A stretch of 64,000 bases of DNA from a virus (Duplodnaviria; Caudoviricetes): the IMG/VR virus record IMGVR_UViG_3300050821_001527, positions 64,001-128,000 of that record, one strand, 5' to 3'. Positions 44,618-64,000 of the stretch are shown piece by piece. The translations under genes and the position numbers were made by a program. Every line of letters starts with the position of its first letter. Within the stretch, counting starts at the first letter, position 1. A model generated the notes under the pieces. That model did no database searches and was not told the DNA's origin. It saw nothing but the letters and a program-made list of their open reading frames with translations.

Positions 44618-45001
44618 GGGGACGTAATGGTTTCGACATTTATTGTTGAAAGCCGAACGCAAGCACGGGATGATTGTTGGCCCGTTAAAAATTCAATCAA
44701 AACATAAATGCTAACAAAGTAGCACTTAGAAATGCAGTTGACTGCGGAGTAGTTCGCGGTTTTGCAGCATTTGCGATGGCTTAATGCCGTCCCGTCCACC
44801 ACTCCGATTCTCGCTACGAGTGAATGGGCGTAAAAACAGCGGGAAAAAACCCTAGAGCCGGTTCGAGGGTAACGGAACCGGATATTGATGGTGAGTTTTG
44901 CTGCCAGTGTAGCCAATCAAGAATATCAAAGGCTGATAAGCTTGTAGTGTTTTTCTTGCAAACGTAAGTGGACGCGGGTTCAACTCCCGCCGTCTCCACC
45001 A
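44618..45001 (+). ncRNA. ssrA: tmRNA, tag ORF 44710-44784 (A)ANKVALRNAVDCGVVRGFAAFAMA*
   Basis: 5' GGGGACG...GGTTTCGAC and 3' GCGGGTTCAACTCCCGCCGTCTCCACCA; G3.U70, A73; TA-N3-GCT resume context. Confidence 0.95.
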
Positions 45002-52681: not shown

Positions 52682-52755
52682 GCGGTAGTGGTGAAATAGT
52701 ATCACACGACGTTGCCAACGTTGAAGCGTCGGGGCAGAACCGACTTACCGCACCA
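52682..52755 (+). tRNA. trnG-GCC: tRNA-Gly(GCC)
   Basis: Cloverleaf, CCA; T loop GGCAGAA. Confidence 0.85.
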
Positions 52756-52833
52756 ATTACTTCTCGCAGGAGTGCGATGGGCCAATCCAAAAGGTTCGCC
52801 CGCTAAAAACTCCCCGTCCAACGACGGGCATAC

Positions 52834-52905
52834 ATCCAGTTGTTCAAGAGAACAATGCGAACTCCAAATCCGCAGAGCAGGGCGCGATACCTTGACTGGA
52901 TGCCA
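52834..52905 (+). tRNA. trnW-CCA: tRNA-Trp(CCA), miniature D arm
   Basis: Loop CTCCAAA, G73, T loop CGCGATA. Confidence 0.65.
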
Positions 52906-52906
52906 T

Positions 52907-53386
52907 TTAATGAGGGTTGTGTTTGACGACCCTTTCGCATAGAGCGATAAACTCGTCAACCGAAAGGTCTTGTTTAGCGTAGTTCACTTCGCTAGTAACC
53001 AAGCCACAGTTCGCCAGAGATGATTCGCCGCCTTTTGAAACTGCGACGATATGGTCTAGGGAATAGGTTTCCGGCTTGGAAATGTCAATTCTTTCACCAG
53101 TAAGATAGCAGCGTGGCTCACTTCCGATTTTATCCTTGAGTTGTTGAACGGTGAATTTGACGACTTTTGGGCGCACAGAACTTCTTCGATTGCCCCTGTA
53201 AAACGTCGCAATCTTAGAAACGAGAGGATTAGTTTCTCGGTAGTTTTTGGTGTTCTTTTGCATAGAAAGCTTTCTGTTCGGGCTGAAACGGTAGATAAGA
53301 GTCCATTTTGAGATTCCGGTTTCCTTGGCAACCGCGTCATAGCTCATTCCGTCAGTAAGCATTTTTTGAATTTTTTCATCGTTCAT
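52907..53386 (-). CDS. HTH-HNH endonuclease inserted antisense in the tRNA array
   Basis: CYLTG...SLDHIV..SKGG...LANCGL....N.AK; GTGTAAT-N7-ATG start. Confidence 0.88.
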   Translation of the reverse strand: MNDEKIQKMLTDGMSYDAVAKETGISKWTLIYRFSPNRKLSMQKNTKNYRETNPLVSKIATFYRGNRRSSVRPKVVKFTVQQLKDKIGSEPRCYLTGERIDISKPETYSLDHIVAVSKGGESSLANCGLVTSEVNYAKQDLSVDEFIALCERVVKHNPH

Positions 53387-53437
53387 ACAAGATATTACAC
53401 TTGCAAATTGCCAGTGGGAACTTGCAATGACGATTTT

Positions 53438-53509
53438 GGGCGTGTGTAGAAGGCTACTGGTTTGCTTTGCAAGCAAATTGTCGGGGAGCGTTACCCCGCA
53501 TGTCCACCA
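53438..53509 (+). tRNA. trnA-UGC: tRNA-Ala(UGC)
   Basis: G3.U70, loop TTTGCAA, T loop AGCGTTA. Confidence 0.85.
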
Positions 53510-53515
53510 ATTTTA

Positions 53516-53678
53516 CGGGTGTTGGCGAAAGTCAGTCAAGCTGACAGCGGAACCGTTAGAAAACCCGCCAAACGCAACCTCAAGTGTGGAGAATACTGGC
53601 TCATATAATTGCCTGAAAAGGCGATACAATGGGGGTTTTTAATGTCTCCTTGTGGGTATAACTCCCACACACCCGCCA
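53516..53678 (+). ncRNA. tRNA shell with about 90-nt structured insert in the anticodon arm (Lys-UUU-like if excised)
   Basis: GGGTGT/ACACCC-G-CCA, D arm, GACA/TGTC stem, T arm GTGGG-TATAACT-CCCAC. Confidence 0.55.
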
Positions 53679-53679
53679 A

Positions 53680-53875
53680 TTTCAGTAGCATTAGCGGTTA
53701 AGGCAATACGATTAGTTACGTGAGCCTCCGTCCACAAGGTAGTGGGTATAATCAAGAAACAAGTGACTCGGTGCCTAAAAGGAGTCATCCCAATGAGCGG
53801 GCGAAAGCTTGTCGCGTTCACCGATTACAAGGTGCATTGGTGCGATAAATGCAGGGTGCGAATCCCAAGCTGAAA
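53680..53875 (+). ncRNA. Multi-hairpin RNA with 3' T-arm mimic
   Basis: TTTCAGT/GCTGAAA closing stem, at least 5 internal hairpins, GGG-TGCGAAT-CCC. Confidence 0.5.
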
Positions 53876-53997
53876 GTATTTCTATCGGCATCAACACAAT
53901 GAACACACCGGCTTAAATGAGTTTCATAACTATGTTGAGTTAGCCGCGTGGTGCTGGTGAGTCGGCGGGTAATCAATCCCGTATGGAGAAAAGTTTC

Positions 53998-54071
53998 GGG
54001 GTTGTGGTTCAATAGCAGAACGGCGGATTCGCAATTCGCAGACGACGGCGCGATACCGTCCTACTCCACCA
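53998..54071 (+). tRNA. trnA-CGC: tRNA-Ala(CGC)
   Basis: G3.U70, loop TTCGCAA. Confidence 0.85.
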
Positions 54072-54081
54072 ATTTCAATTT

Positions 54082-54158
54082 CCGGCCTGCCGTTTGGGTG
54101 CGAGTCCCAAGTTTAAGCAAGTGAAAGCGGCTAACTAGCATAGGTCAATGGTCGGCCA
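54082..54158 (+). ncRNA. T-arm-first (permuted) tRNA-like RNA ending in CCA
   Basis: CCGGCC/GGTCGG-CCA; TTGGG-TGCGAGT-CCCAA near the 5' end. Confidence 0.45.
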
Positions 54159-54162
54159 ATTT

Positions 54163-54236
54163 GGGGTCATAGTTCAATAGTAGAACGCGAGGCTGGCAGT
54201 CTTGTAATCAGAGTGCGATTCTCTGTGGCTCCACCA
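54163..54236 (+). tRNA. trnA-GGC: tRNA-Ala(GGC)
   Basis: G3.U70, loop CTGGCAG. Confidence 0.85.
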
Positions 54237-54343
54237 ATTTCTGAAACGTTCGGGATGGTGTAACGCGCTTTGGCGGTTCATTCGCCATTGCGAACTTCCG
54301 TTGTATCGAGAGAAGCGAAACGGCGTTTCGGGCAAACTTTAAT

Positions 54344-54437
54344 GGCCGGTGTCCCCATCGGGAGTCTGTAAAACTTCTATGCTTACAAATGTGATGGGAA
54401 GTTGCACCGAAGGAGCGTTACCTTCACCGCGCCACCA
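54344..54437 (+). tRNA. Atypical tRNA-Tyr(GUA), D-armless
   Basis: Loop CTGTAAA, bulged acceptor, T loop AGCGTTA, ACCA. Confidence 0.55.
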
Positions 54438-54651
54438 ATTTCTTCTTGACCGAAAACCAGACCTGTAAACCGAATGTCCCGGTAGGTTGCACGTATTGGT
54501 GAGTAAGAGGACACAGGAAGGAAAATTTTCATCCACTGGCGCACTGGCGCTAGTGCGAGATTCGGGGTGGGTGGCAATGAAGACCGAAGCCCCGACAACG
54601 CGAAACCTGCAAAAAGTGGTTTAACTACCGAGAGAGAGGACTCGGCGTAAT

Positions 54652-54727
54652 GGTGGTATTGATGTAATAGTTAGCATCTTCCCCTGTGAAGGGAACTGTG
54701 CGGGTGCGAATCCCGTATATCACCCCA
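54652..54727 (+). tRNA. trnH-GUG: tRNA-His(GUG)
   Basis: Encoded G-1:C73, loop CTGTGAA. Confidence 0.9.
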
Positions 54728-54767
54728 ATTTCATTCACGTAGAACATGAAAGTGTGTAATAAAAGTT

Positions 54768-55214
54768 ATGAGCAGCGTTGACTCACTCGAAAACCACGAC
54801 CAGTTCCATTTGGAACAACTGCACAAGCTTTCCTGTCAAAGCGGCTCGAAGGACATTCTCGTTATTGACGATAGCACGGGCGACTTGATGGACATTCAGA
54901 AGATTATGAACCTCAAGTATGCAGACCAATTTCACGTAAGGTATTGTCTGGACGCTGAAAAGGGGATTGAGATTCTCAAGGAAAACAATTTCTTTTTGGT
55001 TTTGCTCGATTTCAAGATGCCGAAGTTGAACGGTCTTGAAGTAATCGAGACGGTAAACAAGATGAAGCAGAACGTTCCGTTCGTAGTTTTGACGGGATAC
55101 GGCGACCCATCCATGCGCGAAGCATTGACAAGATTGGGCGTAATGCTCCTGTTGGACAAGCCAATCACGGAGAAGAAGCTGGACATGCTCCTGACTTTGA
55201 CTCACGCGAAATAA
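54768..55214 (+). CDS. Stand-alone CheY-like receiver domain
   Basis: IDD, LLD.KMP..NG, LTG, DKP all intact. Confidence 0.92.
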   Translation: MSSVDSLENHDQFHLEQLHKLSCQSGSKDILVIDDSTGDLMDIQKIMNLKYADQFHVRYCLDAEKGIEILKENNFFLVLLDFKMPKLNGLEVIETVNKMKQNVPFVVLTGYGDPSMREALTRLGVMLLLDKPITEKKLDMLLTLTHAK

Positions 55215-55219
55215 TTTCT

Positions 55220-55296
55220 GGCCGCATAGCTCAAATAGATAGAGCAGCACCCCGCGAAGGTGAAGGTTGTAGGTGCGACTCCTACTGTGGCTACCA
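55220..55296 (+). tRNA. trnR-GCG: tRNA-Arg(GCG), C33
   Basis: Loop CCGCGAA; D loop AAATAGATA; T loop TGCGACT. Confidence 0.75.
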
Positions 55297-55493
55297 TTTT
55301 CCCGCATAGTCCGTTGAGCAGCCCCGTAGCAACGAGGAAACAAAAGCTTGATGGTTCAGCCAAGCCGTGCGCCAGCGCGGTATTTGCGTGGTGCGAGTCC
55401 ACGGGGAACGATTTATCCCCCTGCTGGTATAGTCCAGCGAAGTAGGTGAGGCTAACCTATGAGTGGTTCGTAACGCACAAGAGGGAATTTTAT

Positions 55494-55576
55494 GGGCATG
55501 TAACCGAAGCAGTCCTCGAAACTGATTAACCGTAATTATGTTGCAAATGTGGGTGAGATTCCCTCCATGCCTACCA
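55494..55576 (+). tRNA. tRNA-like gene, anticodon unresolved (possible pseudo-tRNA)
   Basis: GGGCATG/CATGCCT-A-CCA and T arm present; anticodon stem poorly paired. Confidence 0.45.
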
Positions 55577-55662
55577 ATTTCTCTGTTTGACAATCGAGCC
55601 TAAATAGTCTGCACAGACGGCGCGGGTTCGTAGATGTTGTGCGAAACGGAGGATTCATTTCT

Positions 55663-55755
55663 GTTCCCGTAGCTGAAAGACAGCCGGTGCCCTTATAAAG
55701 CACTTAATCGCTAGATTGGCGTAAGACTCAGGAGCGTTACCTGACGGGAATACCA
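55663..55755 (+). tRNA. tRNA with UAU anticodon and long variable arm
   Basis: Loop CTTATAA; TAATC-GCTA-GATTG variable hairpin. Confidence 0.7.
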
Positions 55756-55762
55756 AATTTTA

Positions 55763-55846
55763 CGCATCGTGACATAAGCGCGAATAGCACAGCCACACGT
55801 CTCAAAAATGTGAGTTTTAAGGGTGCGAGTCCCTTCGATGCGACCA
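55763..55846 (+). tRNA. trnL-CAA: tRNA-Leu(CAA), short V region, insertion before the D stem
   Basis: Loop CTCAAAA, A73. Confidence 0.75.
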
Positions 55847-55852
55847 ATTTAT

Positions 55853-55928
55853 GTGCCTATGATGGAATAGCATACATACCAGCCTCAGAAGTTGGGTTTT
55901 GCAGGTGCGAGTCCTGCTAGGCATACCA
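55853..55928 (+). tRNA. trnL-CAG: tRNA-Leu(CAG), class I-like short V loop
   Basis: Loop CTCAGAA. Confidence 0.8.
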
Positions 55929-55933
55929 TTTCC

Positions 55934-56017
55934 CGCTCCGTGACCTTGTAGCGAACAGCACAGCTTGCCGTCTTAGACACGGTGGTTTTGCAGGTGCGAG
56001 TCCTGTCGGAGCGACCA
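55934..56017 (+). tRNA. trnL-UAG: tRNA-Leu(UAG), short V region, insertion before the D stem
   Basis: Loop CTTAGAC. Confidence 0.75.
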
Positions 56018-56022
56018 ATTTA

Positions 56023-56110
56023 GCCAGTGTGGTGAAAGAGCAGACACACCATCTTGAGAAGGTGGCGCGAATAAAGTAGCGTGTAGGTGCGAATCCTATC
56101 ACTGGCACCA
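56023..56110 (+). tRNA. trnL-GAG: tRNA-Leu(GAG), long V arm
   Basis: Loop TTGAGAA. Confidence 0.85.
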
Positions 56111-56192
56111 ATTTCCTAATGGAAGGTCTGTTAGGACACAGTAGCAGTCGAGATTCTAACCGCCTCGCCGGGGCGTTGCTACACGGCATTAC

Positions 56193-56267
56193 GGTCTATT
56201 GTTGAATGAGTTATCATAGTTCCCTGTCACGGAGCAATAACGGGTGCGAGTCCCGTATAGACCGCCA
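56193..56267 (+). tRNA. trnD-GUC: tRNA-Asp(GUC)
   Basis: Loop CTGTCAC, G73. Confidence 0.85.
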
Positions 56268-56272
56268 TTTTA

Positions 56273-56340
56273 CGGCTGAGTTAGCGATTCCTGCGCGTGG
56301 GAACGAGACGATTCACTTCGTTTAACTGATGAAGCCGCCA
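56273..56340 (+). ncRNA. 68-nt CCA-ended RNA with a T-loop-like hairpin first
   Basis: CGGCT/AGCCG-CCA; AGTTAG/TTAACT; TTCC-TGCGCGT-GGGA. Confidence 0.4.
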
Positions 56341-56345
56341 ATTTT

Positions 56346-56422
56346 GGGATAGAAGGTAAAGTAGTGGAACCGTTCCGTTGTCTGCGGAAAAAAAGTGGGT
56401 GCGACTCCCATCTATCTCGCCA
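56346..56422 (+). tRNA. trnD-GUC: tRNA-Asp(GUC), second copy, U37
   Basis: Loop TTGTCTG, G73. Confidence 0.75.
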
Positions 56423-56517
56423 TTTTGTCAGAGAAGTCCGTCAACCATGCGGTTGACCCGTATGGAGAACGTCGAGTTCAGACATATTGTATAGCTGGCC
56501 ACTTAGGACTTCCGTTC

Positions 56518-56595
56518 AGTCAGTGAGGGAGTAAGATAACCCCGACGCCTGCAAAGCGTTTCGTATAGTCGGAGCATTACCGACACTGACTTCCA
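56518..56595 (+). tRNA. trnC-GCA: tRNA-Cys(GCA)
   Basis: Loop CTGCAAA, U73, T loop AGCATTA. Confidence 0.85.
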
Positions 56596-56599
56596 TTTC

Positions 56600-56676
56600 G
56601 TCCTAATGGTGTAAGGGAATTACAACACGGTAGTCTTCGGACTACAGATGCAAGCCAACTATTGCAAGGGACTCCA
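56600..56676 (+). ncRNA. tRNA-like RNA with a cUUCGg tetraloop replacing the anticodon loop
   Basis: GTAGTC-TTCG-GACTAC; D and T arms; CCA end. Confidence 0.5.
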
Positions 56677-56680
56677 ATTT

Positions 56681-56757
56681 CGGTTTGTCGCCTAGTGTTC
56701 ATGGCACTCGCCTTGGGAGCGAGCATAACGCGGGTTAAAATCCCGCCAAGCCGACCA
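56681..56757 (+). tRNA. trnP-UGG: tRNA-Pro(UGG)
   Basis: Loop CTTGGGA; T loop TTAAAAT with D-loop GT (U19-A56). Confidence 0.85.
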
Positions 56758-56766
56758 TTTTTTAGA

Positions 56767-56843
56767 CGGGGTATAATGTCAGCAGCTAGACGGCTCCCTT
56801 CGGAGGGGAGAGGCCGTGGGTGCGAATCCCACTACCCCGACCA
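56767..56843 (+). tRNA. trnP-CGG: tRNA-Pro(CGG)
   Basis: Loop TTCGGAG. Confidence 0.85.
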
Positions 56844-56847
56844 TTTA

Positions 56848-56918
56848 TGCAGGAAGAATGAGATTCAAGCGGGCCTCATAAGCCTACCCCCGTGGACGCG
56901 ACTTCCACTCCTGCTTCC
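56848..56918 (+). tRNA. tRNA-Met(CAU)-like, 1:72 mismatch, short D arm
   Basis: Loop CTCATAA; T loop CGCGACT. Confidence 0.55.
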
Positions 56919-56963
56919 ATTTTTTATCGAACAGAAACCGTTCTCCGATATAATAGATATTTA

Positions 56964-57041
56964 CGCGGGGTGGACAAGTAGTAAGTCGTTGGCCTCATAA
57001 GCCAAATATCGTCAGGTGCGATTCCTGACCTCACGCAACCA
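56964..57041 (+). tRNA. trnfM-CAU: Initiator tRNA-fMet(CAU), bulged acceptor
   Basis: CGCGGGG 5' end, C1:A72, loop CTCATAA. Confidence 0.8.
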
Positions 57042-57044
57042 TTT

Positions 57045-57461
57045 ATGGAAGACGCCGTTCTCAACACGCAAAAAGCCTTGGACACCGCATTGGCATCATT
57101 GAATGCGCTGGCTAAAAAAGATTACGTTCCTCCGACAACCCCCGACATTGACCCCGAAACTGAAATGCCGATTAAAGGGAATGGCACGGAAGAATATGAT
57201 ACCGAAGACGCTTACGAGGATGGGGAAGAAGCAGTCCGTCTGTGCATTGAAATTGCCCAGTTGAGGCTAGAGGTCGAGGGCCAGCCCCGCCGTGCTATCG
57301 TCAACACGGAAAAGGCGGCAGAAATCCGAGCAAGGGGAGCGATTGACAAGGTAAGACCAGAGCGTCACCTGAGCGTTTCTCCCGAACTTATCAAGAGTAT
57401 CGAACATTCCGTAGCTAAACCGGAAATGATGTTCTTCGTTTTGGAAGAACCCAAGGAATAA
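57045..57461 (+). CDS. Hypothetical acidic protein, 138 aa, within the tRNA array
   Basis: ORF exactly fills the gap between two tRNAs. Confidence 0.65.
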   Translation: MEDAVLNTQKALDTALASLNALAKKDYVPPTTPDIDPETEMPIKGNGTEEYDTEDAYEDGEEAVRLCIEIAQLRLEVEGQPRRAIVNTEKAAEIRARGAIDKVRPERHLSVSPELIKSIEHSVAKPEMMFFVLEEPKE

Positions 57462-57467
57462 GATTTC

Positions 57468-57542
57468 GCGTTGTTGGCAGAGAAGTGATGCGCTTGCCTT
57501 CCAAGCAAGTTTAAGTGGGAGCATTACCCACACAACGCTCCA
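57468..57542 (+). tRNA. trnG-UCC: tRNA-Gly(UCC)
   Basis: Loop CTTCCAA, U73. Confidence 0.85.
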
Positions 57543-57545
57543 ATT

Positions 57546-57970
57546 TGTCCGAAGCTATAATCCCCGTGCGTAATAGCACTAAGCGCAAGTAGGCCGAAAG
57601 GCAGAACCGTGATGGTGGATGAACTGCTCGTCTAAAATATCGGCTACATAATTTAGTCAGGTCGTCGGTCTGTCGTTGCGGTGAGCAATCACCAAGCCTA
57701 TGGGACGGCGGCTCGAAAAGGTATCCGTAAGCTGGCAGGAATCGCTTGTGCAAGATTCCACTACCGAAGGAGAATGCGGCGAAAGCCAAGTTCGTTCGCA
57801 CTTGTAGTAGGTCAGTCATCTCAGCCGAGGCAGGCATTTTCAAAATCGTTAGGGTTAGTCCAACCACGGTAAAACGTGAGAGGGGTCATAAAAGACTGCA
57901 AGCGTCACCCTGCCTAAAACCCCCTGTTGGTGAGTGGATAGTTGAAAACGAGGTCAGCGATGACCTGACT
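57546..57970 (+). ncRNA. Large ornate structured RNA (GOLLD/ROOL-like candidate)
   Basis: 13-bp long-range helix 57655-57667/57958-57970; several GNRA-capped hairpins. Confidence 0.6.
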
Positions 57971-57973
57971 TTT

Positions 57974-58049
57974 AGCCGCATGGTGAAATTACAATCACAC
58001 AATCCTGCGAAGATTGAAGTCCCGGTGAGATTCCGGGTGCTGGCTACCA
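57974..58049 (+). tRNA. trnR-GCG: tRNA-Arg(GCG), second copy, bulged acceptor
   Basis: Loop CTGCGAA. Confidence 0.75.
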
Positions 58050-58053
58050 TTTT

Positions 58054-58128
58054 GCGACATAGGTGTTTATAGATACACGCGAGTCTTCCAAACTTGAGTA
58101 GTGAGTGCGATACTCACACGTCGCTCCA
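58054..58128 (+). tRNA. trnG-UCC: tRNA-Gly(UCC), second copy
   Basis: Loop CTTCCAA, U73. Confidence 0.8.
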
Positions 58129-58133
58129 ATTTA

Positions 58134-58186
58134 TGCACCCAAAACTTGCAAGTTACTCGACCCATGAATCGAGTGTGGTGCAACCA
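58134..58186 (+). ncRNA. 53-nt two-hairpin RNA ending in ACCA (armless tRNA-like)
   Basis: TGCACC/GGTGCA-A-CCA; ACTCGA-CCCATGAA-TCGAGT. Confidence 0.4.
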
Positions 58187-58192
58187 ATTTAT

Positions 58193-58267
58193 TCCCTAGT
58201 AGTGTCAAAGTAGCACGTCTCCCTGTTAAGGAGTTTAGTGTTGGTGCGAGTCCAACCTTCGGAACCA
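58193..58267 (+). tRNA. trnN-GUU: tRNA-Asn(GUU), mismatched acceptor
   Basis: Loop CTGTTAA. Confidence 0.65.
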
Positions 58268-58279
58268 TTTAGTCAGCAT

Positions 58280-58364
58280 TCCAGAGTAGGAGAATTGGTA
58301 AACCCAGCGGACTGTTAATCCGCCGCGAAAGCAACTGCTCGTTCAAGTCGAGCCTCTGGAGCCA
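58280..58364 (+). tRNA. trnN-GUU: tRNA-Asn(GUU), canonical elbow, extra variable hairpin
   Basis: D loop GG, T loop TTCAAGT, GC-GAAA-GC variable arm, G73. Confidence 0.9.
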
Positions 58365-58474
58365 TTTTCAAGACATTTCCCCTGACGAAAGCTCTACGAT
58401 GTAGAACATCGCACCAGCAAGTCATGGTTACATGACGTGTCCGTGGACGCACGGAAGCGGGGAGTTTGAATTTT

Positions 58475-58552
58475 GCATCCGTCAACCAAACGCGTAAATG
58501 ACTCGGGCTTTTAACCCAAAGGATGTGGTCACGCAAGCCACCGGATGCACCA
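58475..58552 (+). tRNA. trnK-UUU: tRNA-Lys(UUU)
   Basis: Loop CTTTTAA; divergent T loop. Confidence 0.7.
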
Positions 58553-58670
58553 ATTTCTACCTGAACACAAGTGCTATGTCATCGAGCCAAGTCACGGTTA
58601 TTGTGTATCGTGAAAATTCCGTTGACAATGTAGCAATGCGCGAGAAAGACGCGCACGGGTTCCTTTTCAT

Positions 58671-58744
58671 AGGGATATAGTATAAAAGTAGAACGGCACC
58701 CTGACACGGTGAAGGCGAAGGAGCGTTACCTTCTATCCCTACCA
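58671..58744 (+). tRNA. trnV-GAC: tRNA-Val(GAC)
   Basis: Loop CTGACAC. Confidence 0.85.
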
Positions 58745-58750
58745 TTTTAT

Positions 58751-58830
58751 GAGAATCGAGACGCGGGTGCATATCCCGCCTGCCTGTTTAAATACTTGCA
58801 GTAGCTTAGTAGCAGAGCGCGATTCGTCTC
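58751..58830 (+). ncRNA. YrlA-type Y RNA (permuted tRNA mimic), A18.G55 version
   Basis: Outer GAATCG/CGATTC, T arm, loop-closed acceptor CTGC/GCAG, TA, D arm GCTT-AGTAGCA-GAGC. Confidence 0.75.
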
Positions 58831-58838
58831 CCTTTTAC

Positions 58839-58917
58839 GGAACGGTAACTCAAATGGGTCAAGAGTGTTCGCCCGATTAGCGAAAGGTTGTGGACTCCCA
58901 AGCCACTCGTTCTACCA
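58839..58917 (+). tRNA. trnI-GAU: tRNA-Ile(GAU)
   Basis: Loop CCGATTA. Confidence 0.75.
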
Positions 58918-58922
58918 ATCAC

Positions 58923-58995
58923 GGTTCCATACGATAAAGCAGTCCCCATGCCCGATTAGCGTGGTGTCTTGGTGCGAGTCCAAGTGGAACTACCA
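58923..58995 (+). tRNA. trnI-GAU: tRNA-Ile(GAU), second copy
   Basis: Loop CCGATTA. Confidence 0.7.
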
Positions 58996-59000
58996 TTTAC

Positions 59001-59076
59001 TGCCCTTTAGCTCATTCAGCAGAGCGGCGTCTTGATAAGGCGAAGGTGGTCGGGGCAGAGCCGACAAGGGCAACCA
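59001..59076 (+). tRNA. trnI-GAU: tRNA-Ile(GAU), third copy
   Basis: Loop TTGATAA. Confidence 0.85.
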
Positions 59077-59079
59077 ATT

Positions 59080-59244
59080 ATGAAACCATACGGATTGACA
59101 AAGAAAATCCTACACAACCATCCCGATGTTCACCCGCCGAAGGGCTGGGTCAACTGGTGGGAAAGCGAAACGAGGGACTGTCTCCGCAAGAAAGCAGAAC
59201 GCCAACAGGCGAAAAAACAGATTTTACAAGATTTGGCTTCGTAG
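59080..59244 (+). CDS. 54-aa basic peptide (HPPKGWVNWWE motif); stop lies inside the next tRNA
   Basis: ATG directly after a tRNA CCA-ATT spacer. Confidence 0.6.
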   Translation: MKPYGLTKKILHNHPDVHPPKGWVNWWESETRDCLRKKAERQQAKKQILQDLAS

Positions 59245-59311
59245 CTCAAGCGTCAAGAGCAGCCGCCTTTTAAGCGGAAGCGTCCGGGCAGTCAATCCGG
59301 TGGGGCCACCA
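59235..59311 (+). tRNA. trnK-UUU: tRNA-Lys(UUU), second copy
   Basis: Loop CTTTTAA; T loop CAGTCAA. Confidence 0.8.
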
Positions 59312-59457
59312 ATTTATAAACACCTAGACCGTGTGCGATACCGGCATGGTTTCGTGAGTCGGCTATGTCGAAGCCGAAGAAGATTCGCGGGACTTGGAGT
59401 GTGAAAGAAGCACGGGTGTATTTTTTTGAATAAAAAGCGGATTCGTTTATCATAGGT

Positions 59458-59835
59458 ATGCAAAACGTTTATCTGAACCGCGACGAACTCCTGCCGATTG
59501 TCAAGGAGAACAAGCAAAAGCACGACAACATTTTTTCCACAGCCGTTTCCGGCTATTGGGTCAAGGCCGAAGAAATCCTGAACGGCAAACTGAACAAGGT
59601 CAAAGCCAAGCAGCAAGTTGACAATTACCTTGGACTCAGCTATCCCGAAGACCATTCTGATGAATATGACCGAGTAATCAGGATGCTGGAACTTTCGTCT
59701 GATGACAAGATTCAGCTTACGTCTTCCGAGTTTGATTGCTATGTTCGCAATCAATGGAACTGGCGCAAGGCGTTCTTGACGGTCAATTCAACATACATTT
59801 CGGACTGGAACCCCATTTCCGGGGCTTCATTCTAA
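59458..59835 (+). CDS. Hypothetical helical protein, 125 aa
   Basis: TATCAT -10-like element 4 nt upstream; plausible fold. Confidence 0.7.
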   Translation: MQNVYLNRDELLPIVKENKQKHDNIFSTAVSGYWVKAEEILNGKLNKVKAKQQVDNYLGLSYPEDHSDEYDRVIRMLELSSDDKIQLTSSEFDCYVRNQWNWRKAFLTVNSTYISDWNPISGASF

Positions 59836-59915
59836 CAGTCTTGGTCGAGGCGTGGGTTCGATTCCGCCGTGTGGCTCCATGCCGCACGTAGCTTAGTGGC
59901 AGAGCGCGACCTGTT
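59834..59915 (+). ncRNA. YrlA-type Y RNA, canonical G18.U55 version
   Basis: GGTCG/CGACC outer stem, TTCGATT loop, 7-bp loop-closed acceptor GTGTGGC/GCCGCAC, D arm GCTT-AGTGGCA-GAGC. Confidence 0.8.
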
Positions 59916-59916
59916 C

Positions 59917-59991
59917 GGGGCTATGGTGCAGAAGTAAGCACGTTAGGTTCTCAACCTGAAAACGTCGGAGCGTTACCGACTAGCCCTACCA
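59917..59991 (+). tRNA. trnE-CUC: tRNA-Glu(CUC)
   Basis: Loop TTCTCAA. Confidence 0.85.
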
Positions 59992-59997
59992 ATTTAC

Positions 59998-60073
59998 GGG
60001 GGAGTGGTGCATAAGTAAGCACGGTTGGCTTTCACCCAGCAGAAGCTCGGAGCGTTACCGGCCTCCCCTACCA
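59998..60073 (+). tRNA. trnE-UUC: tRNA-Glu(UUC)
   Basis: Loop CTTTCAC. Confidence 0.85.
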
Positions 60074-60078
60074 TTTCT

Positions 60079-60156
60079 GTAGCTGACCAGTAAGTCGTCG
60101 TCTGCTCTGGCTTTCAACCAGATGTGTAGTGGGTGCGAGTCCCACCAGCTATGCCA
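60079..60156 (+). tRNA. trnE-UUC: tRNA-Glu(UUC), second copy
   Basis: Loop CTTTCAA, G73. Confidence 0.8.
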
Positions 60157-60219
60157 TTTCCGGGGTGCGCCTCGTCAATTCGTTGATAGGACGGCGAATA
60201 TATCACCCCACTTTTTCTC

Positions 60220-60297
60220 GGTTCCGTGGTGTAAATGGATTAAGCACAAGAGACTTTGACCCTCTTAGCTCCGGGTGCCAGCCGGACGGAACTGCCA
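60220..60297 (+). tRNA. trnQ-UUG: tRNA-Gln(UUG)
   Basis: Loop CTTTGAC, G73. Confidence 0.8.
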
Positions 60298-60304
60298 TTT
60301 TTAT

Positions 60305-60380
60305 TCCCTCTTGGATTGTAATAGTAGCAACTCGGGCTTTGAACCCGAAAGCGGTGGGGCAGAACCATCAGAGGGAGCCA
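60305..60380 (+). tRNA. trnQ-UUG: tRNA-Gln(UUG), second copy
   Basis: Loop CTTTGAA, U1-A72, G73. Confidence 0.88.
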
Positions 60381-60465
60381 TTTATCGGGGTAAGGGTGTA
60401 TTCGTGTAACGACCACTCGGAAGGAGTCTGGAAGCTTACGGACAAACTTCGTCCCCATCTATTTT

Positions 60466-60541
60466 CGGAGTGTATTGTCAACAGCAGACGGCCCGCCTTG
60501 GAAGTGGGAGGTAGTTGGGGCAGCACCAACCATTCCGACCA
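60466..60541 (+). tRNA. trnP-UGG: tRNA-Pro(UGG), second copy, A37
   Basis: Loop CTTGGAA. Confidence 0.85.
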
Positions 60542-60545
60542 ATTT

Positions 60546-60728
60546 ATGAACACTGAAAAAATCGTAGGTCAAGAATATCCAGCCGAATGTCTCGTTGATT
60601 CCAAGACGGGTCTGCCGGTGATGATTCGTCATACCGAAGATTCGGACAGGATTCGTCAGTTGGCGAAGGCCAGCGCGGAGAACCTTCTGAGGGCTTTGCG
60701 AGACGAAACGGGGCTGACGCCCATTTAA
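60546..60728 (+). CDS. Hypothetical protein, 60 aa, between tRNAs
   Basis: ORF fills the tRNA spacer exactly. Confidence 0.55.
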   Translation: MNTEKIVGQEYPAECLVDSKTGLPVMIRHTEDSDRIRQLAKASAENLLRALRDETGLTPI

Positions 60729-60733
60729 TTTAC

Positions 60734-60809
60734 GGGTCTATAACTCAAATAGATAGAGCCTCGCCTTCTAAGCGATGGGATTCAGGTGCGACTCCTGATA
60801 GACCTACCA
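60734..60809 (+). tRNA. trnR-UCU: tRNA-Arg(UCU)
   Basis: Loop CTTCTAA. Confidence 0.88.
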
Positions 60810-60866
60810 TTTCTAGTATAGCCACATGGCGTTTCACAAGTGCTTCAACTAGGTGTAATTCTAGGT

Positions 60867-61343
60867 ATGGGCCACAAAGCTACAAACGAACAACTGGCGG
60901 TTATTATCGCAGAGTCTATTTCCTTCTCTGAGGCAATGAGAAAATGCGATATGAAGCCAAGGGGAGCGTCTTACCAATGGTTTCAAAAACGAGTTAAGAA
61001 GCTCGGATTAGACACGTCTCATTTTAAGGGATACTCGGCTGGTGGTCTGGAAAGGGCCAAGCAGATAAAGAAGCATTGGTCGGAGATTCTTGTTTTAGGA
61101 GACGGTTCGGGCAGAGAAAGGTCAGAGCCTCTTAGGAGGGCTTTTAAAGAATACTGCTTAGAGCAGGCAGTCCCACATATTTGCAACGTCTGCAACGTCT
61201 GCAAGATGGAACCAATTTGGAATGGCCAGCCAATGATATTTCAAATTGACCACATCAATTCAATCAATTTCGATAACAGACCGCTGAACCTTCAATGGAT
61301 TTGCGGCAACTGTCATCAACAGAAAAATTCTAACGGCTACTAA
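60867..61343 (+). CDS. HNH endonuclease (second) in the tRNA array
   Basis: LDTSHF N-terminal module; C..C...FQIDHIN....DNR..NL.W.C.NCH. Confidence 0.9.
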   Translation: MGHKATNEQLAVIIAESISFSEAMRKCDMKPRGASYQWFQKRVKKLGLDTSHFKGYSAGGLERAKQIKKHWSEILVLGDGSGRERSEPLRRAFKEYCLEQAVPHICNVCNVCKMEPIWNGQPMIFQIDHINSINFDNRPLNLQWICGNCHQQKNSNGY

Positions 61344-61410
61344 GCTAATCAAGTGAAAGCAGCGGACTGAAAATCCGTGGAGTTTGGCGCGATACCAAAA
61401 GTAGCCACCA
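61335..61410 (+). tRNA. trnF-GAA: tRNA-Phe(GAA)
   Basis: Loop CTGAAAA; overlaps the HNH stop. Confidence 0.85.
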
Positions 61411-61415
61411 ATTTT

Positions 61416-61563
61416 GGGTATATGTTGTAATGGCAGCAAAAAGGGCGGGAGAGTCGAGGGAATAGCAGACCAACTATAGCTCTGTAAGCCTAGTAGCTCG
61501 ATTTGAAAACCTGAATACTCGTCTATACGAGTGGCCTCGGTTCGATTCCGGGTATATCCACCA
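61416..61563 (+). ncRNA. 148-nt tRNA shell (G3.U70, canonical elbow) with about 60-nt insert
   Basis: GGGTATA/TATATCC-A-CCA; D loop GG; T loop TTCGATT; variable hairpin; GTCGAG/CTCGAT-closed insert. Confidence 0.65.
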
Positions 61564-61567
61564 ATCT

Positions 61568-61646
61568 CCGTCAGTAGCTCAAATGTGGTAAGAGCGTTGG
61601 TTTGAAACACCAAAGGTTGTCGTTCCCCAAACGACTTGACGGGCCA
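61568..61646 (+). tRNA. trnF-GAA: tRNA-Phe(GAA), second copy, G73
   Basis: Loop TTGAAAC; T loop TCCCCAA. Confidence 0.7.
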
Positions 61647-61666
61647 TTTTAAGTGTATAATTCTGT

Positions 61667-61921
61667 GTGGAAGCACTAGCAAAACAGACCCTTCAATGTG
61701 ATGACTGCAAGAAAGTCATTGACACCCGCCGCGATACTGACCTTGAGGACAGCATCCAAGCGAAGTTGAAGAACCTCAAGGGCGACCCGCAGGTTTATCA
61801 TTTCTGCGCGGAAAGCTGCCTTGCCTCCTTTTTGCAGAAGCGCATCAAGAAAAAGAACGCCCGCGCCTCATACGACGCTTTCGCCTACGAGATTGATTTG
61901 TCCGGGGCAAAGGTTAAATAA
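61667..61921 (+). CDS. Small metal-binding (TRASH-like) protein
   Basis: CDDC...HFC..SC; TATAAT 5 nt upstream of GTG. Confidence 0.6.
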   Translation: MEALAKQTLQCDDCKKVIDTRRDTDLEDSIQAKLKNLKGDPQVYHFCAESCLASFLQKRIKKKNARASYDAFAYEIDLSGAKVK

Positions 61922-62130
61922 TGAAATTTTCATCTTTCGCCAAGCTTGTGTTGATTTTCGGGGCAGCGATTATGCTCCTTGATGGTTGCGCTCTCGTTGG
62001 TTGTAATCACGCATTCCCGCAAGTCGAATGGTATTGGTCAGCCGATGCTAAAGCCTGTCGCAAGGAACACGCGATGGAAGCCCAGTGGCGACAGTCCGCA
62101 ACAAACAATTTAAGGCAGTCGTTCAAGTGA
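61921..62130 (+). CDS. Small predicted lipoprotein
   Basis: Hydrophobic signal plus LDG-C. Confidence 0.5.
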   Translation: MKFSSFAKLVLIFGAAIMLLDGCALVGCNHAFPQVEWYWSADAKACRKEHAMEAQWRQSATNNLRQSFK

Positions 62131-62184
62131 ACAAGATGCTCTCATAAGGCGTCAAGGATGGAGCGTTACCATCGTCTGCTACCA
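62114..62184 (+). tRNA. trnM-CAU: tRNA-Met(CAU), miniature D arm
   Basis: Loop CTCATAA; GTTC-AAGT-GAAC. Confidence 0.65.
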
Positions 62185-62189
62185 ATTTC

Positions 62190-62266
62190 GGATTCGTAGC
62201 TCAAATGCTAAGAGCAGCCGGTTCTTACCCGGAAGGTTGTGGCTCGTCAAGCCACCGAGTCCACCA
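62190..62266 (+). tRNA. trnK-CUU: tRNA-Lys(CUU)
   Basis: Loop TTCTTAC; D-loop GC with T loop TCGTCAA (C19-G56). Confidence 0.85.
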
Positions 62267-62270
62267 TTTA

Positions 62271-62340
62271 TGGCCGTCAGCCTGAACCCCATCAGGCTAG
62301 TCCACCAAGGACGATGCAGAGGGTTATGCAACGGCATCCA
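62271..62340 (+). ncRNA. Three-hairpin cloverleaf ending in TCCA, no canonical loops
   Basis: GCCGT/ACGGC; AGCCTGA/TCAGGCT; GTCC/GGAC; TGCA/TGCA. Confidence 0.4.
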
Positions 62341-62344
62341 TTTC

Positions 62345-62416
62345 GCCAGTGCCGTCAGCACGGATTCGAGTTTTGTAAACTTGAAGCAGTCGGGGCAGCA
62401 CCGACCTCTGGCTCCA
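62345..62416 (+). tRNA. trnT-UGU: tRNA-Thr(UGU)
   Basis: Loop TTTGTAA. Confidence 0.8.
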
Positions 62417-62420
62417 TTTC

Positions 62421-62556
62421 GCCGTTCTAGTTCAATGTAGAACACGTCTCTCGAAAAGCCGATAGGCTCCCTGAACGGAGCAGTTAGTGGGGTGTTTGCC
62501 CTGCGATGTAATAAGGCCAGATGAACTGCTGGTGCCAAGTCCAGCGAACGGCTCCA
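62421..62556 (+). tRNA. tRNA-Ser(CGA)-like with about 65-nt variable region
   Basis: GCCGTTC/GAACGGC-T-CCA; loop CTCGAAA; multi-hairpin variable region. Confidence 0.6.
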
Positions 62557-62626
62557 AACTAGGCTGCGCGTGGTAGCCTCAGAGGGGTGAAAGTCCCTAA
62601 CCACGACAAATTTAATTCAATTTAAT

Positions 62627-62701
62627 CGCCCGTTCTGAATAATAGTAGTTCGTCGCGCTCTGAACGCGAAGGCGGTGGGGCAGAACCATCACGGGTGGCC
62701 A
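62627..62701 (+). tRNA. trnQ-CUG: tRNA-Gln(CUG)
   Basis: Loop CTCTGAA, G73. Confidence 0.85.
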
Positions 62702-62706
62702 TTTAC

Positions 62707-62780
62707 GCGGGATTAGCTCAAAAGTAGAGCGAGTCGTTTACACCGACAGGACGAGGGAGCATTACCTTCATTCCGCACCA
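62707..62780 (+). tRNA. trnV-UAC: tRNA-Val(UAC)
   Basis: Loop TTTACAC. Confidence 0.88.
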
Positions 62781-62785
62781 TTTAC

Positions 62786-62862
62786 GCAATCGAAGCTACA
62801 GCAGACCGGCTCCCGGCTCTTAACCGGATTTGGTGAGGTTGCAACTACCTCCGATTGCACCA
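62786..62862 (+). tRNA. trnK-CUU: tRNA-Lys(CUU), second copy
   Basis: Loop CTCTTAA. Confidence 0.8.
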
Positions 62863-62866
62863 TTTC

Positions 62867-62946
62867 GCGGTCTTAGCTTAAACGGATAAAAGCCCTTCGC
62901 TCTTAACGAATGAGATGTCGCCCTCCAAGCAGGACAGACCGCACCA
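62867..62946 (+). tRNA. trnK-CUU: tRNA-Lys(CUU), third copy, irregular T arm
   Basis: Loop CTCTTAA. Confidence 0.7.
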
Positions 62947-62957
62947 ATTTGATTACA

Positions 62958-62998
62958 CCCCTGCCGCCTCTTGACAATGCGTAATCGCAGGGGTTTTT
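62958..62998 (+). terminator. Probable terminator near the end of the array
   Basis: CCCCTGC/GCAGGGG plus T5. Confidence 0.55.
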
Positions 62999-63006
62999 CC
63001 ATTTAT

Positions 63007-63092
63007 GGCCGTGTGTAGCGTAAGGGAAAAGCAGAACCGATAGACTTAAAATCTGTTGCTACTTGAGGGTGCAAGACCGTCCACGGCTACCA
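63007..63092 (+). tRNA. trnL-UAA: tRNA-Leu(UAA), insertion before the D stem pairing with the V region
   Basis: Loop CTTAAAA; GTAGCG/TGCTAC extra helix. Confidence 0.75.
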
Positions 63093-63111
63093 ATTTAGTG
63101 TAATGTTTGTC

Positions 63112-63189
63112 ATGGACAACTCAAAGCCTTGGTGGAAAGAAGAATGGTTTGAAACTTGGCTGAAAATTGCCCGCCGTCAGTTCTCGTAA
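63112..63189 (+). CDS. 25-aa Trp-rich peptide MDNSKPWWKEEWFETWLKIARRQFS
   Basis: GTGTAAT-N7-ATG start context. Confidence 0.4.
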   Translation: MDNSKPWWKEEWFETWLKIARRQFS

Positions 63190-63207
63190 ATGCGTGTAAT
63201 AAGAAGT

Positions 63208-63966
63208 ATGGGAAAGTTACTAAGACTCGGAAGAAAGCAAGCCCGCTTCGACAAGCGCACTTTGAAGCTGGAAGACTACATTTCTGCTGATTTACAGTTC
63301 CCCCGCAAGGTTGTTTGGCAGAACAAGATTCCAAATTGGGGCATGATGCTTAACGACCAGTTGGGAGATTGCACCTGTGCCGCTGCCGGTCACATGATTA
63401 TGAACTGGACGGCCAATGCGGGCGTCCTCGTCACCCCAAACGACAACCAAATTCTTTCCGCTTACGAAGCCGTTGGGGGATACAACCCAAATGCCGCTCC
63501 CGACGCCAATGGAAACAACCCAACCGATAACGGTGCCGTTGAACTTGACGTTTTGAAGTATTGGCAGGGAACCGGAATCGCCGGTCACAAAATCGGGGCT
63601 TACGTCAGCATTGACCCGAAGAACAGACGCCACTTGAAGTTGGCTATCTGGCTGTTTGGGGGAATTTACACAGGTGTCAACCTCACGCAAGCGGACATGG
63701 ACGCCACCAACGCAAACCAGCCTTGGAAATACACCACCGGTTCCTCGATTGGCGGTCACGCCATTCCTGCCTTGGGATTCAACCAGCACGGCTTTCAATT
63801 CATTACATGGGGAGCCGTTCAAACGGCCACTCCTGAATGGGTCGCCAACCAAACCGAAGAAGTTTACGCCTTGATTTCCGCAGATTGGCTTGAAAACAAT
63901 GGCAATGCTCCCTCTGGTTTTGATGCTCAACAACTTGCCGCCGACTTAAAAAGCGTCCAAAACTAA
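63208..63966 (+). CDS. Papain-like (C1-type) cysteine peptidase
   Basis: NDQLGDCTCA (catalytic Cys), GGHAI (His), ITWG; GTGTAAT-N7-ATG. Confidence 0.8.
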   Translation: MGKLLRLGRKQARFDKRTLKLEDYISADLQFPRKVVWQNKIPNWGMMLNDQLGDCTCAAAGHMIMNWTANAGVLVTPNDNQILSAYEAVGGYNPNAAPDANGNNPTDNGAVELDVLKYWQGTGIAGHKIGAYVSIDPKNRRHLKLAIWLFGGIYTGVNLTQADMDATNANQPWKYTTGSSIGGHAIPALGFNQHGFQFITWGAVQTATPEWVANQTEEVYALISADWLENNGNAPSGFDAQQLAADLKSVQN

Positions 63967-64000
63967 TTCAAAATATTTGCTTGGGCCAAGCCATCCGGGT

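Follow-up and report, generated by a model that had tools for sequence, protein, structure and literature searches.

The window analysed here is a 64,000-nucleotide stretch, positions 64,001 to 128,000 of the IMG/VR virus record IMGVR_UViG_3300050821_001527, which derives from a soil phage (Duplodnaviria; Caudoviricetes) and spans 202,882 bp at a completeness of 91% by CheckV. Its distal part is occupied by a long array of transfer RNA (tRNA) genes, many of which carry an altered combination of nucleotides 54 and 58 in the T loop. The U54-A58 pair is taught as an invariant tertiary pair of tRNA, and it underlies three RNA modifications that rank among the most conserved. How many genes were recognised in the array depended on the method: ARAGORN reported 16 tRNAs and Rfam 20–27, a scan for a T arm with acceptor strand and CCA end found 56 T arms in the whole array, and a covariance model of the array itself (R1), seeded with 24 of its Rfam-confirmed tRNAs, gave 51 matches at E ≤ 0.01. 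G55 was present in 30 of 38 parsed array genes. At every tRNA gene between 52682 and 64000 the encoded CCA is followed directly by TTT or ATTT, a trailer that is identical in the syntenic array of contig L083 and that may be a processing signal.

52682..64000, plus strand, continuing to about 69825 past the window end: tRNA gene array with 50–57 CCA-encoding tRNA or tRNA-like genes, most of them with G55

Between 52682 and 62780 we identified 47 T arms with a CCA end, which divide into 21 with U54/A58, ten with A54/U58, six with G54/G58, four with C54/A58 and six of another architecture with C58. A sequence-only reading of this region, made before the present analysis, had put the three variant classes at about ten, six and four genes, and these are exactly the numbers found. 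Writing the classes as nucleotide 54/nucleotide 58, the A/U loops read AGCGTTA or AGCATTA, the G/G loops GGCAG followed by AA, CA or AG, and the C/A loops CGCGA followed by TA or CT. The 54/58 numbering is confirmed by the Rfam tRNA model, in whose alignment the variant loops match the consensus UUCGAAU position by position. Past the window end the array adds two A/U and two G/G loops, and U54 and A58 are both retained in 26 tRNAs of the array as a whole. The 20 genes of the A/U, G/G and C/A classes, referred to below as the flagged genes, are as follows.

53438..53509, plus strand: tRNA-Ala(TGC), A54/U58, G3-U70 kept; R1 39.6 bits, not a seed
54409..54437, plus strand: T arm, 3' acceptor strand and CCA of a Tyr(GTA)-like RNA without a normal D arm, A54/U58; read from the sequence, no model recovers a whole tRNA
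55663..55755, plus strand: tRNA with anticodon TAT and a long variable arm, A54/U58; ARAGORN, R1 30.8 bits
56518..56595, plus strand: tRNA-Cys(GCA), U73, A54/U58 (syntenic orthologue in L083 C54/A58); R1 29.2 bits
57468..57542, plus strand: tRNA-Gly(TCC), A54/U58; ARAGORN, Rfam 45.4 bits
58671..58744, plus strand: tRNA-Val(GAC), A54/U58; Rfam 46.7 bits
59917..59991, plus strand: tRNA-Glu(CTC), A54/U58; ARAGORN, Rfam 52 bits
59998..60073, plus strand: tRNA-Glu(TTC), A54/U58; ARAGORN, Rfam 36.1 bits
62114..62184, plus strand: tRNA(CAT) with a shortened D region, A54/U58; R1 only 17.7 bits
62707..62780, plus strand: tRNA-Val(TAC), A54/U58; Rfam 45.6 bits
52682..52755, plus strand: tRNA-Gly(GCC), G54/G58 (orthologue in L083 of the same class); Rfam 46.8 bits with alignment
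59001..59076, plus strand: tRNA-Ile(GAT), G54/G58; Rfam 38.3 bits
60305..60380, plus strand: tRNA-Gln(TTG), G54/G58; R1 35.1 bits
60466..60541, plus strand: tRNA-Pro(TGG), G54/G58 (nearest paralogue Pro(CGG) U54/A58); R1 47.7 bits
62345..62416, plus strand: tRNA-Thr(TGT) with a shortened D region, G54/G58; R1 19.2 bits
62627..62701, plus strand: tRNA-Gln(CTG), G54/G58; R1 33.7 bits
52834..52905, plus strand: tRNA-Trp(CCA) with a shortened D region, C54/A58 (orthologue in L083 A54/U58); R1 18.5 bits
53998..54071, plus strand: tRNA-Ala(CGC), G3-U70 kept, C54/A58; Rfam 51.4 bits with alignment
56848..56919, plus strand: tRNA(CAT) with a shortened D region, C54/A58; R1 15.8 bits
61335..61410, plus strand: tRNA-Phe(GAA), C54/A58; Rfam 47.6 bits

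All 20 flagged genes have G55 and A, G or C at position 54, with U or G at position 58 in 16 of the 20, so that none of them keeps the near-invariant U54/U55/A58 combination. A54 and A58 never occur together in a loop of the array, though A60 is common, and the T loop of the eukaryotic initiator type is thus missing from it. The A/U set comprises Ala-TGC, the Tyr-like RNA, Ile-TAT, Cys, Gly-TCC, Val-GAC, Glu-CTC, Glu-TTC, Met and Val-TAC, which bears out the earlier remark that the swap recurs across unrelated isotypes, and the three Ala tRNAs of the array belong to three different 54/58 classes. When the flagged genes were evaluated as cloverleaves, nine scored above the Rfam gathering threshold (RF00005), and R1 recovered ten of the 11 that were absent from its seed, six at 29–48 bits and four at 16–19 bits. 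The acceptor stem, the anticodon stem and the T stem are intact. Identity elements were checked for Ala, Cys and His and are present: all three Ala tRNAs have G3-U70 and A73, Cys has U73 and His has C73. Not one of the 56 T arms in the array has a half-changed 54/58 pair. Mutual information (MI) between the two positions was 1.32 bit; every other pair of T-loop positions gave less, and none of 5000 column shuffles reached this value. The substitutions are therefore paired, as the sequence-only reading had supposed, and not distributed at random.

The same rule was found in other phage arrays. We assembled two samples from IMG/VR, the first by scanning for one A/U loop with stem ends and CCA (119 loci, nearly all of them tRNA arrays, with 1052 unique tRNAs) and the second, independent of it, by ascertaining loci on a U/A loop with G55 (83 loci, 917 unique tRNAs). 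With the ascertained motif excluded, U54 in the first sample was accompanied by A58 in 815 of 819 cases, A54 by U58 in 61 and by A58 in 23, G54 by G58 in 29 of 31, and C54 by A58 in 18. The second sample gave U-A in 693 of 695, A-U in 56 of 68, C-A in 36 of 40 and G-G in 41 of 44, with an MI of 0.56 bit between 54 and 58 and of 0.44 bit between 54 and 60. Tabulating 54 and 58 across homologous arrays, a check that had been proposed along with the original observation, thus returned identical covariation in both samples. Loops without U54 also differ at other positions: they have A60 in place of the pyrimidine, a variable loop that is more often four nucleotides long, and mostly non-canonical combinations at 15/48, as far as the approximate assignment of these positions goes (A-C, A-A and C-G versus A-U or G-C). 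They account for 46% of G55 tRNAs in the second sample versus 7.6% of U55 tRNAs, and G55 itself is accompanied by A18G19 in 395 tRNAs, with 44 exceptions. Most other phages carry just 1–3 variant-loop tRNAs per array, identical variant heptamers turn up in very distant phages, and Ala-TGC stays A/U in six of ten G55-type arrays. The cultured Pseudomonas phage 16Q has an annotated tRNA-Ile and an annotated tRNA-Pro with A/U loops. In a search restricted to open-access papers, we found none describing natural A-U, G-G or C-A classes at 54/58. We also observed a distinct A54/A58/A60 signature, in tRNA-Met(CAT) of Escherichia phage ESCO13 (L122:2213-2287) and in some 35 other phage tRNAs, chiefly of Glu, Asp and His.

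In its geometry, U54-A58 belongs to the trans Watson-Crick/Hoogsteen (tWH) pairs (PMC7912444). The tWH family includes UA, CC, CA, CG, UU, AG, AA, GU, UG and GG, while AU, CU, GA, GC and UC are absent from it (PMC2673412). Among 2060 unique tRNAs with a standard T arm, 1589 have U-A, 254 have A-U and 217 have another combination; 212 (98%) of these 217 are tWH-allowed and 5 are not, the allowed types including 93 G-G, 66 C-A, 37 A-A, nine C-C, five U-U and a few others. C-A and G-G are members of the family of U-A, as are the A-A and C-C combinations of relatives, and they may be regarded as ordinary substitutes that could do the same job in the same fold. The A-U class is another matter. It had been described as the mirror image of U-A, a description that is not supported, because A-U is absent from the tWH family (PMC2673412) and because the class comes with a fixed context of its own, namely U or A at 59, A60, usually a four-nucleotide variable loop, and a non-canonical 15/48. 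Taken together with the pair tables, this context suggests that the A-U class is probably a remodelled loop with a remodelled neighbouring stack. A plain Watson-Crick A54-U58 pair closing a triloop was considered and is not favoured, since G-C and C-G are almost absent from 54-58 (0 and 1 of 2060, respectively).

Contig L083, which shares gene order as well as the CCA-(A)TTT trailers with the array, conserves orthologues of its genes, including members with short D regions. In nine syntenic orthologue pairs the class is kept five times and differs four times, and in each of the four both 54 and 58 are altered: Trp is C/A here and A/U in L083, Ala-TGC A/U here and U/A there, His U/A here and A/U there, and Cys, at 87–88% identity, A/U here and C/A there. 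Over all loci we found 17 pairs of differing class that share their anticodon and, with the loop left aside, are at least 85% identical, among them a Gly-TCC series leading from U/A with A60 through C/A to A/U. Within the array, the nearest neighbour of a gene was of the same class in 11 of 44 cases, compared with a permutation mean of 9.9 (p = 0.40), and close paralogues differ in class: Pro-CGG from Pro-TGG, one Gly-TCC gene from the other, and each of the three Ala tRNAs from the other two.

Variant loops also occur in cellular genomes. A scan of one genome per prokaryote species returned 120 loci, at 36 of which the A/U loop lies in a real tRNA; matches on Nostoc, Leptolyngbya and actinomycete contigs, which are without tRNA arrays, were set aside as chance. 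Verrucomicrobia contigs carry long G55-type arrays with the same four loop classes and with a gene order matching that of the first three genes here (Gly-GCC, Trp-CCA, Ala-TGC). In 11 Saccharibacteria species a tRNA-Cys(GCA) with an A/U loop adjoins tRNA-Leu(TAA) in a syntenic position (L276:1522-1595; L251, L261, L262, L271, L292, L302, L318, L336, L339 and L348). The loop of this tRNA is invariant, its acceptor and anticodon stems show compensatory changes, and it combines U73, G15-G48, A18-G55 and A54-U58. In one of the Saccharibacteria genomes, the regions around 44 Rfam tRNA matches yielded 43 ARAGORN tRNAs for 19 amino acids without Cys, all with canonical T loops. The variant gene is the only tRNA-Cys found in that genome, the other 43–44 tRNAs being canonical.

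The variant loops are unevenly distributed over the amino acids. Among 1938 phage tRNAs, loops without U54 were rare in Leu (1/167), Arg (5/139) and Ser (7/98) and frequent in His (21/50), Ile (43/114), Glu (42/112) and Phe (23/62). Across 24 G55-type arrays U-A was retained in 33 of 33 Leu and 38 of 41 Arg tRNAs, and in the present array Leu-CAG, Leu-GAG, Arg-GCG and Arg-TCT are all U-A. This near-exclusion of variant loops from tRNA-Leu and tRNA-Arg is new here. Leucyl- and arginyl-tRNA synthetases (LeuRS and ArgRS) read the corner formed by the D and T loops together with a variable pocket made up of positions 16, 17, 20, 59 and 60. Since these enzymes read the elbow corner, a synthetase constraint is the likeliest reason why Leu and Arg are spared. 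The same bias disfavours a general evasion strategy, as this would not spare particular amino acids.

Upstream of the array the window contains an RNA that served as a comparator.

44618..45001, plus strand: phage transfer-messenger RNA (tmRNA), found by ARAGORN and Rfam (140.5 bits); T loop canonical (U54, U55, C56, A58)

This tmRNA has an unusual predicted tag peptide, and its T loop is canonical although most tRNAs of the phage have G55. Outside the window, on the minus strand at genome positions 9726-10106, lies a match of 77.6 bits to the head domain of PolyA_pol / CCA-adding nucleotidyltransferases within a 235-residue open reading frame (ORF); yet CCA is already encoded by all the tRNA genes. 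A search of the phage genome found no protein of the TruB or TrmA families, and a search for relatives through a small ORF inside the array (57045-57461) found none. No RNase P RNA was returned when Rfam was run on the genome and on the stretch about 9.9 kb beyond the window end. The array also holds a match to the raiA RNA motif at 57659-57966 (54.9 bits, E = 2.6e-11), under the Rfam threshold of 101, and several unusual T arms. One type, found in Lys, Phe, Gln and Ile-like tRNAs, has loops ending in CAA (CAG in one case) with C58 and mostly lacks the G53-C61 pair (58475-58552, 58839-58917, 59235-59311, 60220-60297, 61568-61646, 62190-62266 and 62867-62943). A loop resembling it is present in phage contig L036, and the type could be a third elbow design. 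In two tRNA-like genes, 55494-55576 and 57974-58049, C56 of the T loop is replaced by A56; the latter has no G19 in its D loop, which suggests a swapped 19-56 pair.

We consider it about 80% probable that the flagged genes are functional tRNAs with a structurally compensated alternative T loop, which is inherited in mobile G55-type arrays and limited by synthetases, a reading that draws on comparison of sequences. The non-Watson-Crick pair 54-58 closes the loop, stacks on G53-C61 and holds the bulge of nucleotides 59-60, and in the flagged genes both of its partners have been replaced together. The trait is carried by a family of mobile G55-type tRNA arrays common to phages and Verrucomicrobia, in which orthologues switch class frequently with no mismatched intermediate visible today, and Leu and Arg tRNAs nearly always stay U-A, probably because the synthetases reading this corner restrict it. 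That hundreds of phage arrays, and the apparently sole tRNA-Cys of some bacteria, have such matched sets argues for a working alternative design. Several points weigh against this interpretation. Five of the 20 genes are weak as tRNAs, namely the four with shortened D regions, at 16–19 bits, and the Tyr-like RNA at 54344-54437, which R1 did not recover. The comparison sets consist of CCA-encoding tRNAs from our own parser at loci picked by a T-loop motif, and p-values are overstated, since arrays that are related do not count as independent. The rule used to assign positions 15 and 48 was simple and may err in odd D arms. For the A-U class, what indicates that 54 and 58 would pair is their covariation, and the pair tables make the standard geometry impossible.

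The weak genes, along with other tRNA-like oddities in the array, might be taken to mean that the variant loops are pseudogenes or debris in a bloated array. We reject such decay as hardly credible, given that half-changed pairs are absent from all 56 T arms, that stems and identity elements are kept, that L083 conserves even the short-D orthologues, and that the only tRNA-Cys found in a cellular genome uses the same loop; here the sequence-only reading, which had argued against decay, is supported. It is also very unlikely that each loop type goes back to one ancestor, copied within the array with a change of anticodon, which would make the recurrence across isotypes only apparent. Isoacceptors do share a class in Glu CTC/TTC, Gln TTG/CTG and Val GAC/TAC, but class does not cluster with similarity of the tRNA body, the close paralogues of Pro, Gly and Ala belong to different classes, and class differs between syntenic orthologues; we reject loop classes as paralogue lineages within the array on the nearest-neighbour test and the L083 comparison. 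Neutral compensated drift is harder to dismiss, and we regard it as possible, if short of an even chance. Once the elbow had been rewired to A18-G55, the 54-58 pair would be under looser constraint and could wander, without benefit, among the combinations that fold. The frequent switches among close relatives (four of nine against L083, and the 17 close pairs overall) fit this idea at least as well as they fit escape from a nuclease. Three further observations speak for it: G55 tRNAs lack U54 six times as often as U55 tRNAs do, nature offers plausible one-step intermediates (A-A loops, and U-A loops that have A60), and class is not strictly tied to isotype within the array. Drift is harder to reconcile with a loop that is invariant in 11 Saccharibacteria species while the stems vary, with the persistence of A/U in Ala-TGC in six of ten G55-type arrays, and with identical heptamers in very distant phages.

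The remaining explanations invoke a selective advantage of the altered loop. A54, G54 and C54 cannot be methylated to 5-methyluridine (m5U), and U58 and G58 cannot become 1-methyladenosine (m1A), as the enzymology of TrmA and TrmI implies (review PMC7912444). That the variant loops cannot receive m5U54, pseudouridine 55 or m1A58 is therefore true, but trivially so. The sequence-only reading went further and saw selection for T loops that fold without, or are unable to receive, m5U54 and m1A58. This would suit a phage that encodes no TruB or TrmA family protein and whose tRNAs must function minutes after synthesis, but we think it unlikely. The C54/A58 loops retain A58, 26 tRNAs of the array retain both U54 and A58, the phage tmRNA keeps U54-A58, and most other phages have only one to three such tRNAs per array. 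Any substitution would serve evasion, yet only matched pairs occur, and the exclusion of Leu and Arg is left unexplained. In Saccharibacteria the loop is found in one of about 44 tRNAs, and it is thus not a response to a missing enzyme. A concrete rival to the modification idea comes from the CRISPR-associated Schlafen nuclease CbCash, which cleaves tRNAs chiefly at a UUC motif of the T loop and whose cleavage is abolished by a single mutation of U54 or U55 (PMC13462974). The variant loops are without the U54-U55 motif that such T-loop-cutting defence nucleases need. Loss of U54, U55 or both would then make phage tRNAs resistant and able to replace cleaved host tRNAs. There is precedent for phage tRNAs evading anticodon nucleases by loop changes (Azam 2024, PMC11555353; cited in PMC13462974), and variant loops are abundant in phage arrays; the authors of the CbCash paper (2026) leave open whether phage tRNAs are targets (PMC13462974). 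We nevertheless hold nuclease escape to be doubtful, because G55 alone should already block cleavage and the change at 54/58 would remain unexplained, because the scarcity in Leu and Arg tRNAs needs a second assumption, and because the UUC loop is retained in the phage tmRNA and the same variant loop occurs in a core bacterial tRNA-Cys. A broader version of this idea, which we offer as speculation and think improbable, is that the matched 54-58 set (A-U, G-G, C-A, A-A, C-C), together with A60, A18-G55 and the altered 15/48, forms a second discrete elbow architecture, which phages and mobile arrays would use as a counter-defence that hides their tRNAs from readers of the universal T loop, especially nucleases of the Schlafen/Cash type, and which LeuRS and ArgRS would forbid.

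Under the preferred reading of a compensated, functional loop, the natural set of matched replacements amounts to a mutational map of the tRNA elbow, which records the accepted alternatives, the changes that accompany them (A60, 15/48 and variable-loop length) and the tRNAs that are excluded (Leu and Arg). Standard gene finders miss many such genes, and as ARAGORN reported 16 of more than 50 in this array, phage tRNA repertoires are under-annotated. For tRNAs meant to do without T-loop modification the variant loops offer natural templates, and they make it testable whether phage tRNAs escape T-loop nucleases.

Like the canonical tRNA T loop, the loops described here have seven nucleotides on a five-base-pair stem closed by G53-C61, with C56, a purine at 57 and a matched 54-58 combination followed by nucleotides 59 and 60. 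They differ from it in having A-U, G-G or C-A instead of U54-A58, G55 instead of pseudouridine 55, and mostly A60 instead of a pyrimidine, so that they lack the targets of the classical modifications. Zagryadskaya, Doyon and Steinberg (2003) reportedly recovered G54-G58 and G54-A58 as functional substitutes for U54-A58 in suppressor tRNAs with randomised T loops that had been selected in vivo, and are said to have proposed that the 54-58 pair holds the dinucleotide 59-60, which would fit the covariation of 54, 58 and 60 and of 15/48 found here. Those suppressors reportedly came from laboratory selections in one tRNA body, whereas the present loops are natural, abundant, spread over many isotypes, and include A-U and C-A combinations that are not known from that work. 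The eukaryotic initiator tRNA has A54-A58 with A60 (yeast structure cited in PMC7912444). It resembles the present cases in combining a non-U54 nucleotide with A60, it shows that a working T loop can be closed with a purine at 54, and its exact type is found in phage arrays (the ESCO13 tRNA-Met), but no A-A occurs among the 20 flagged genes, which are elongators of many isotypes, phage-borne and with G55. Phage tRNAs that escape nucleases resemble those of the array, when CbCash is considered, in that the variant tRNAs differ from those of the host at nucleotides the nuclease needs (U54 and U55 for CbCash); the known cases lie in the anticodon loop, and here it is the T loop that is changed. 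The closest parallel in genomic organisation is the 'tRNA array units' of bacteria and phages, in which dozens of packed tRNA genes for most isotypes reside on mobile DNA (PMC5966550, PMC6409571). The present array can be assigned to the mobile G55 type on account of G55 in most of its genes, the A18 D loop, synteny with L083 and the order of its first three genes, which is that of Verrucomicrobia. The papers on array units reportedly treat gene content and distribution (PMC5966550, PMC6409571), and the rewired T loop is a feature of the array described here.

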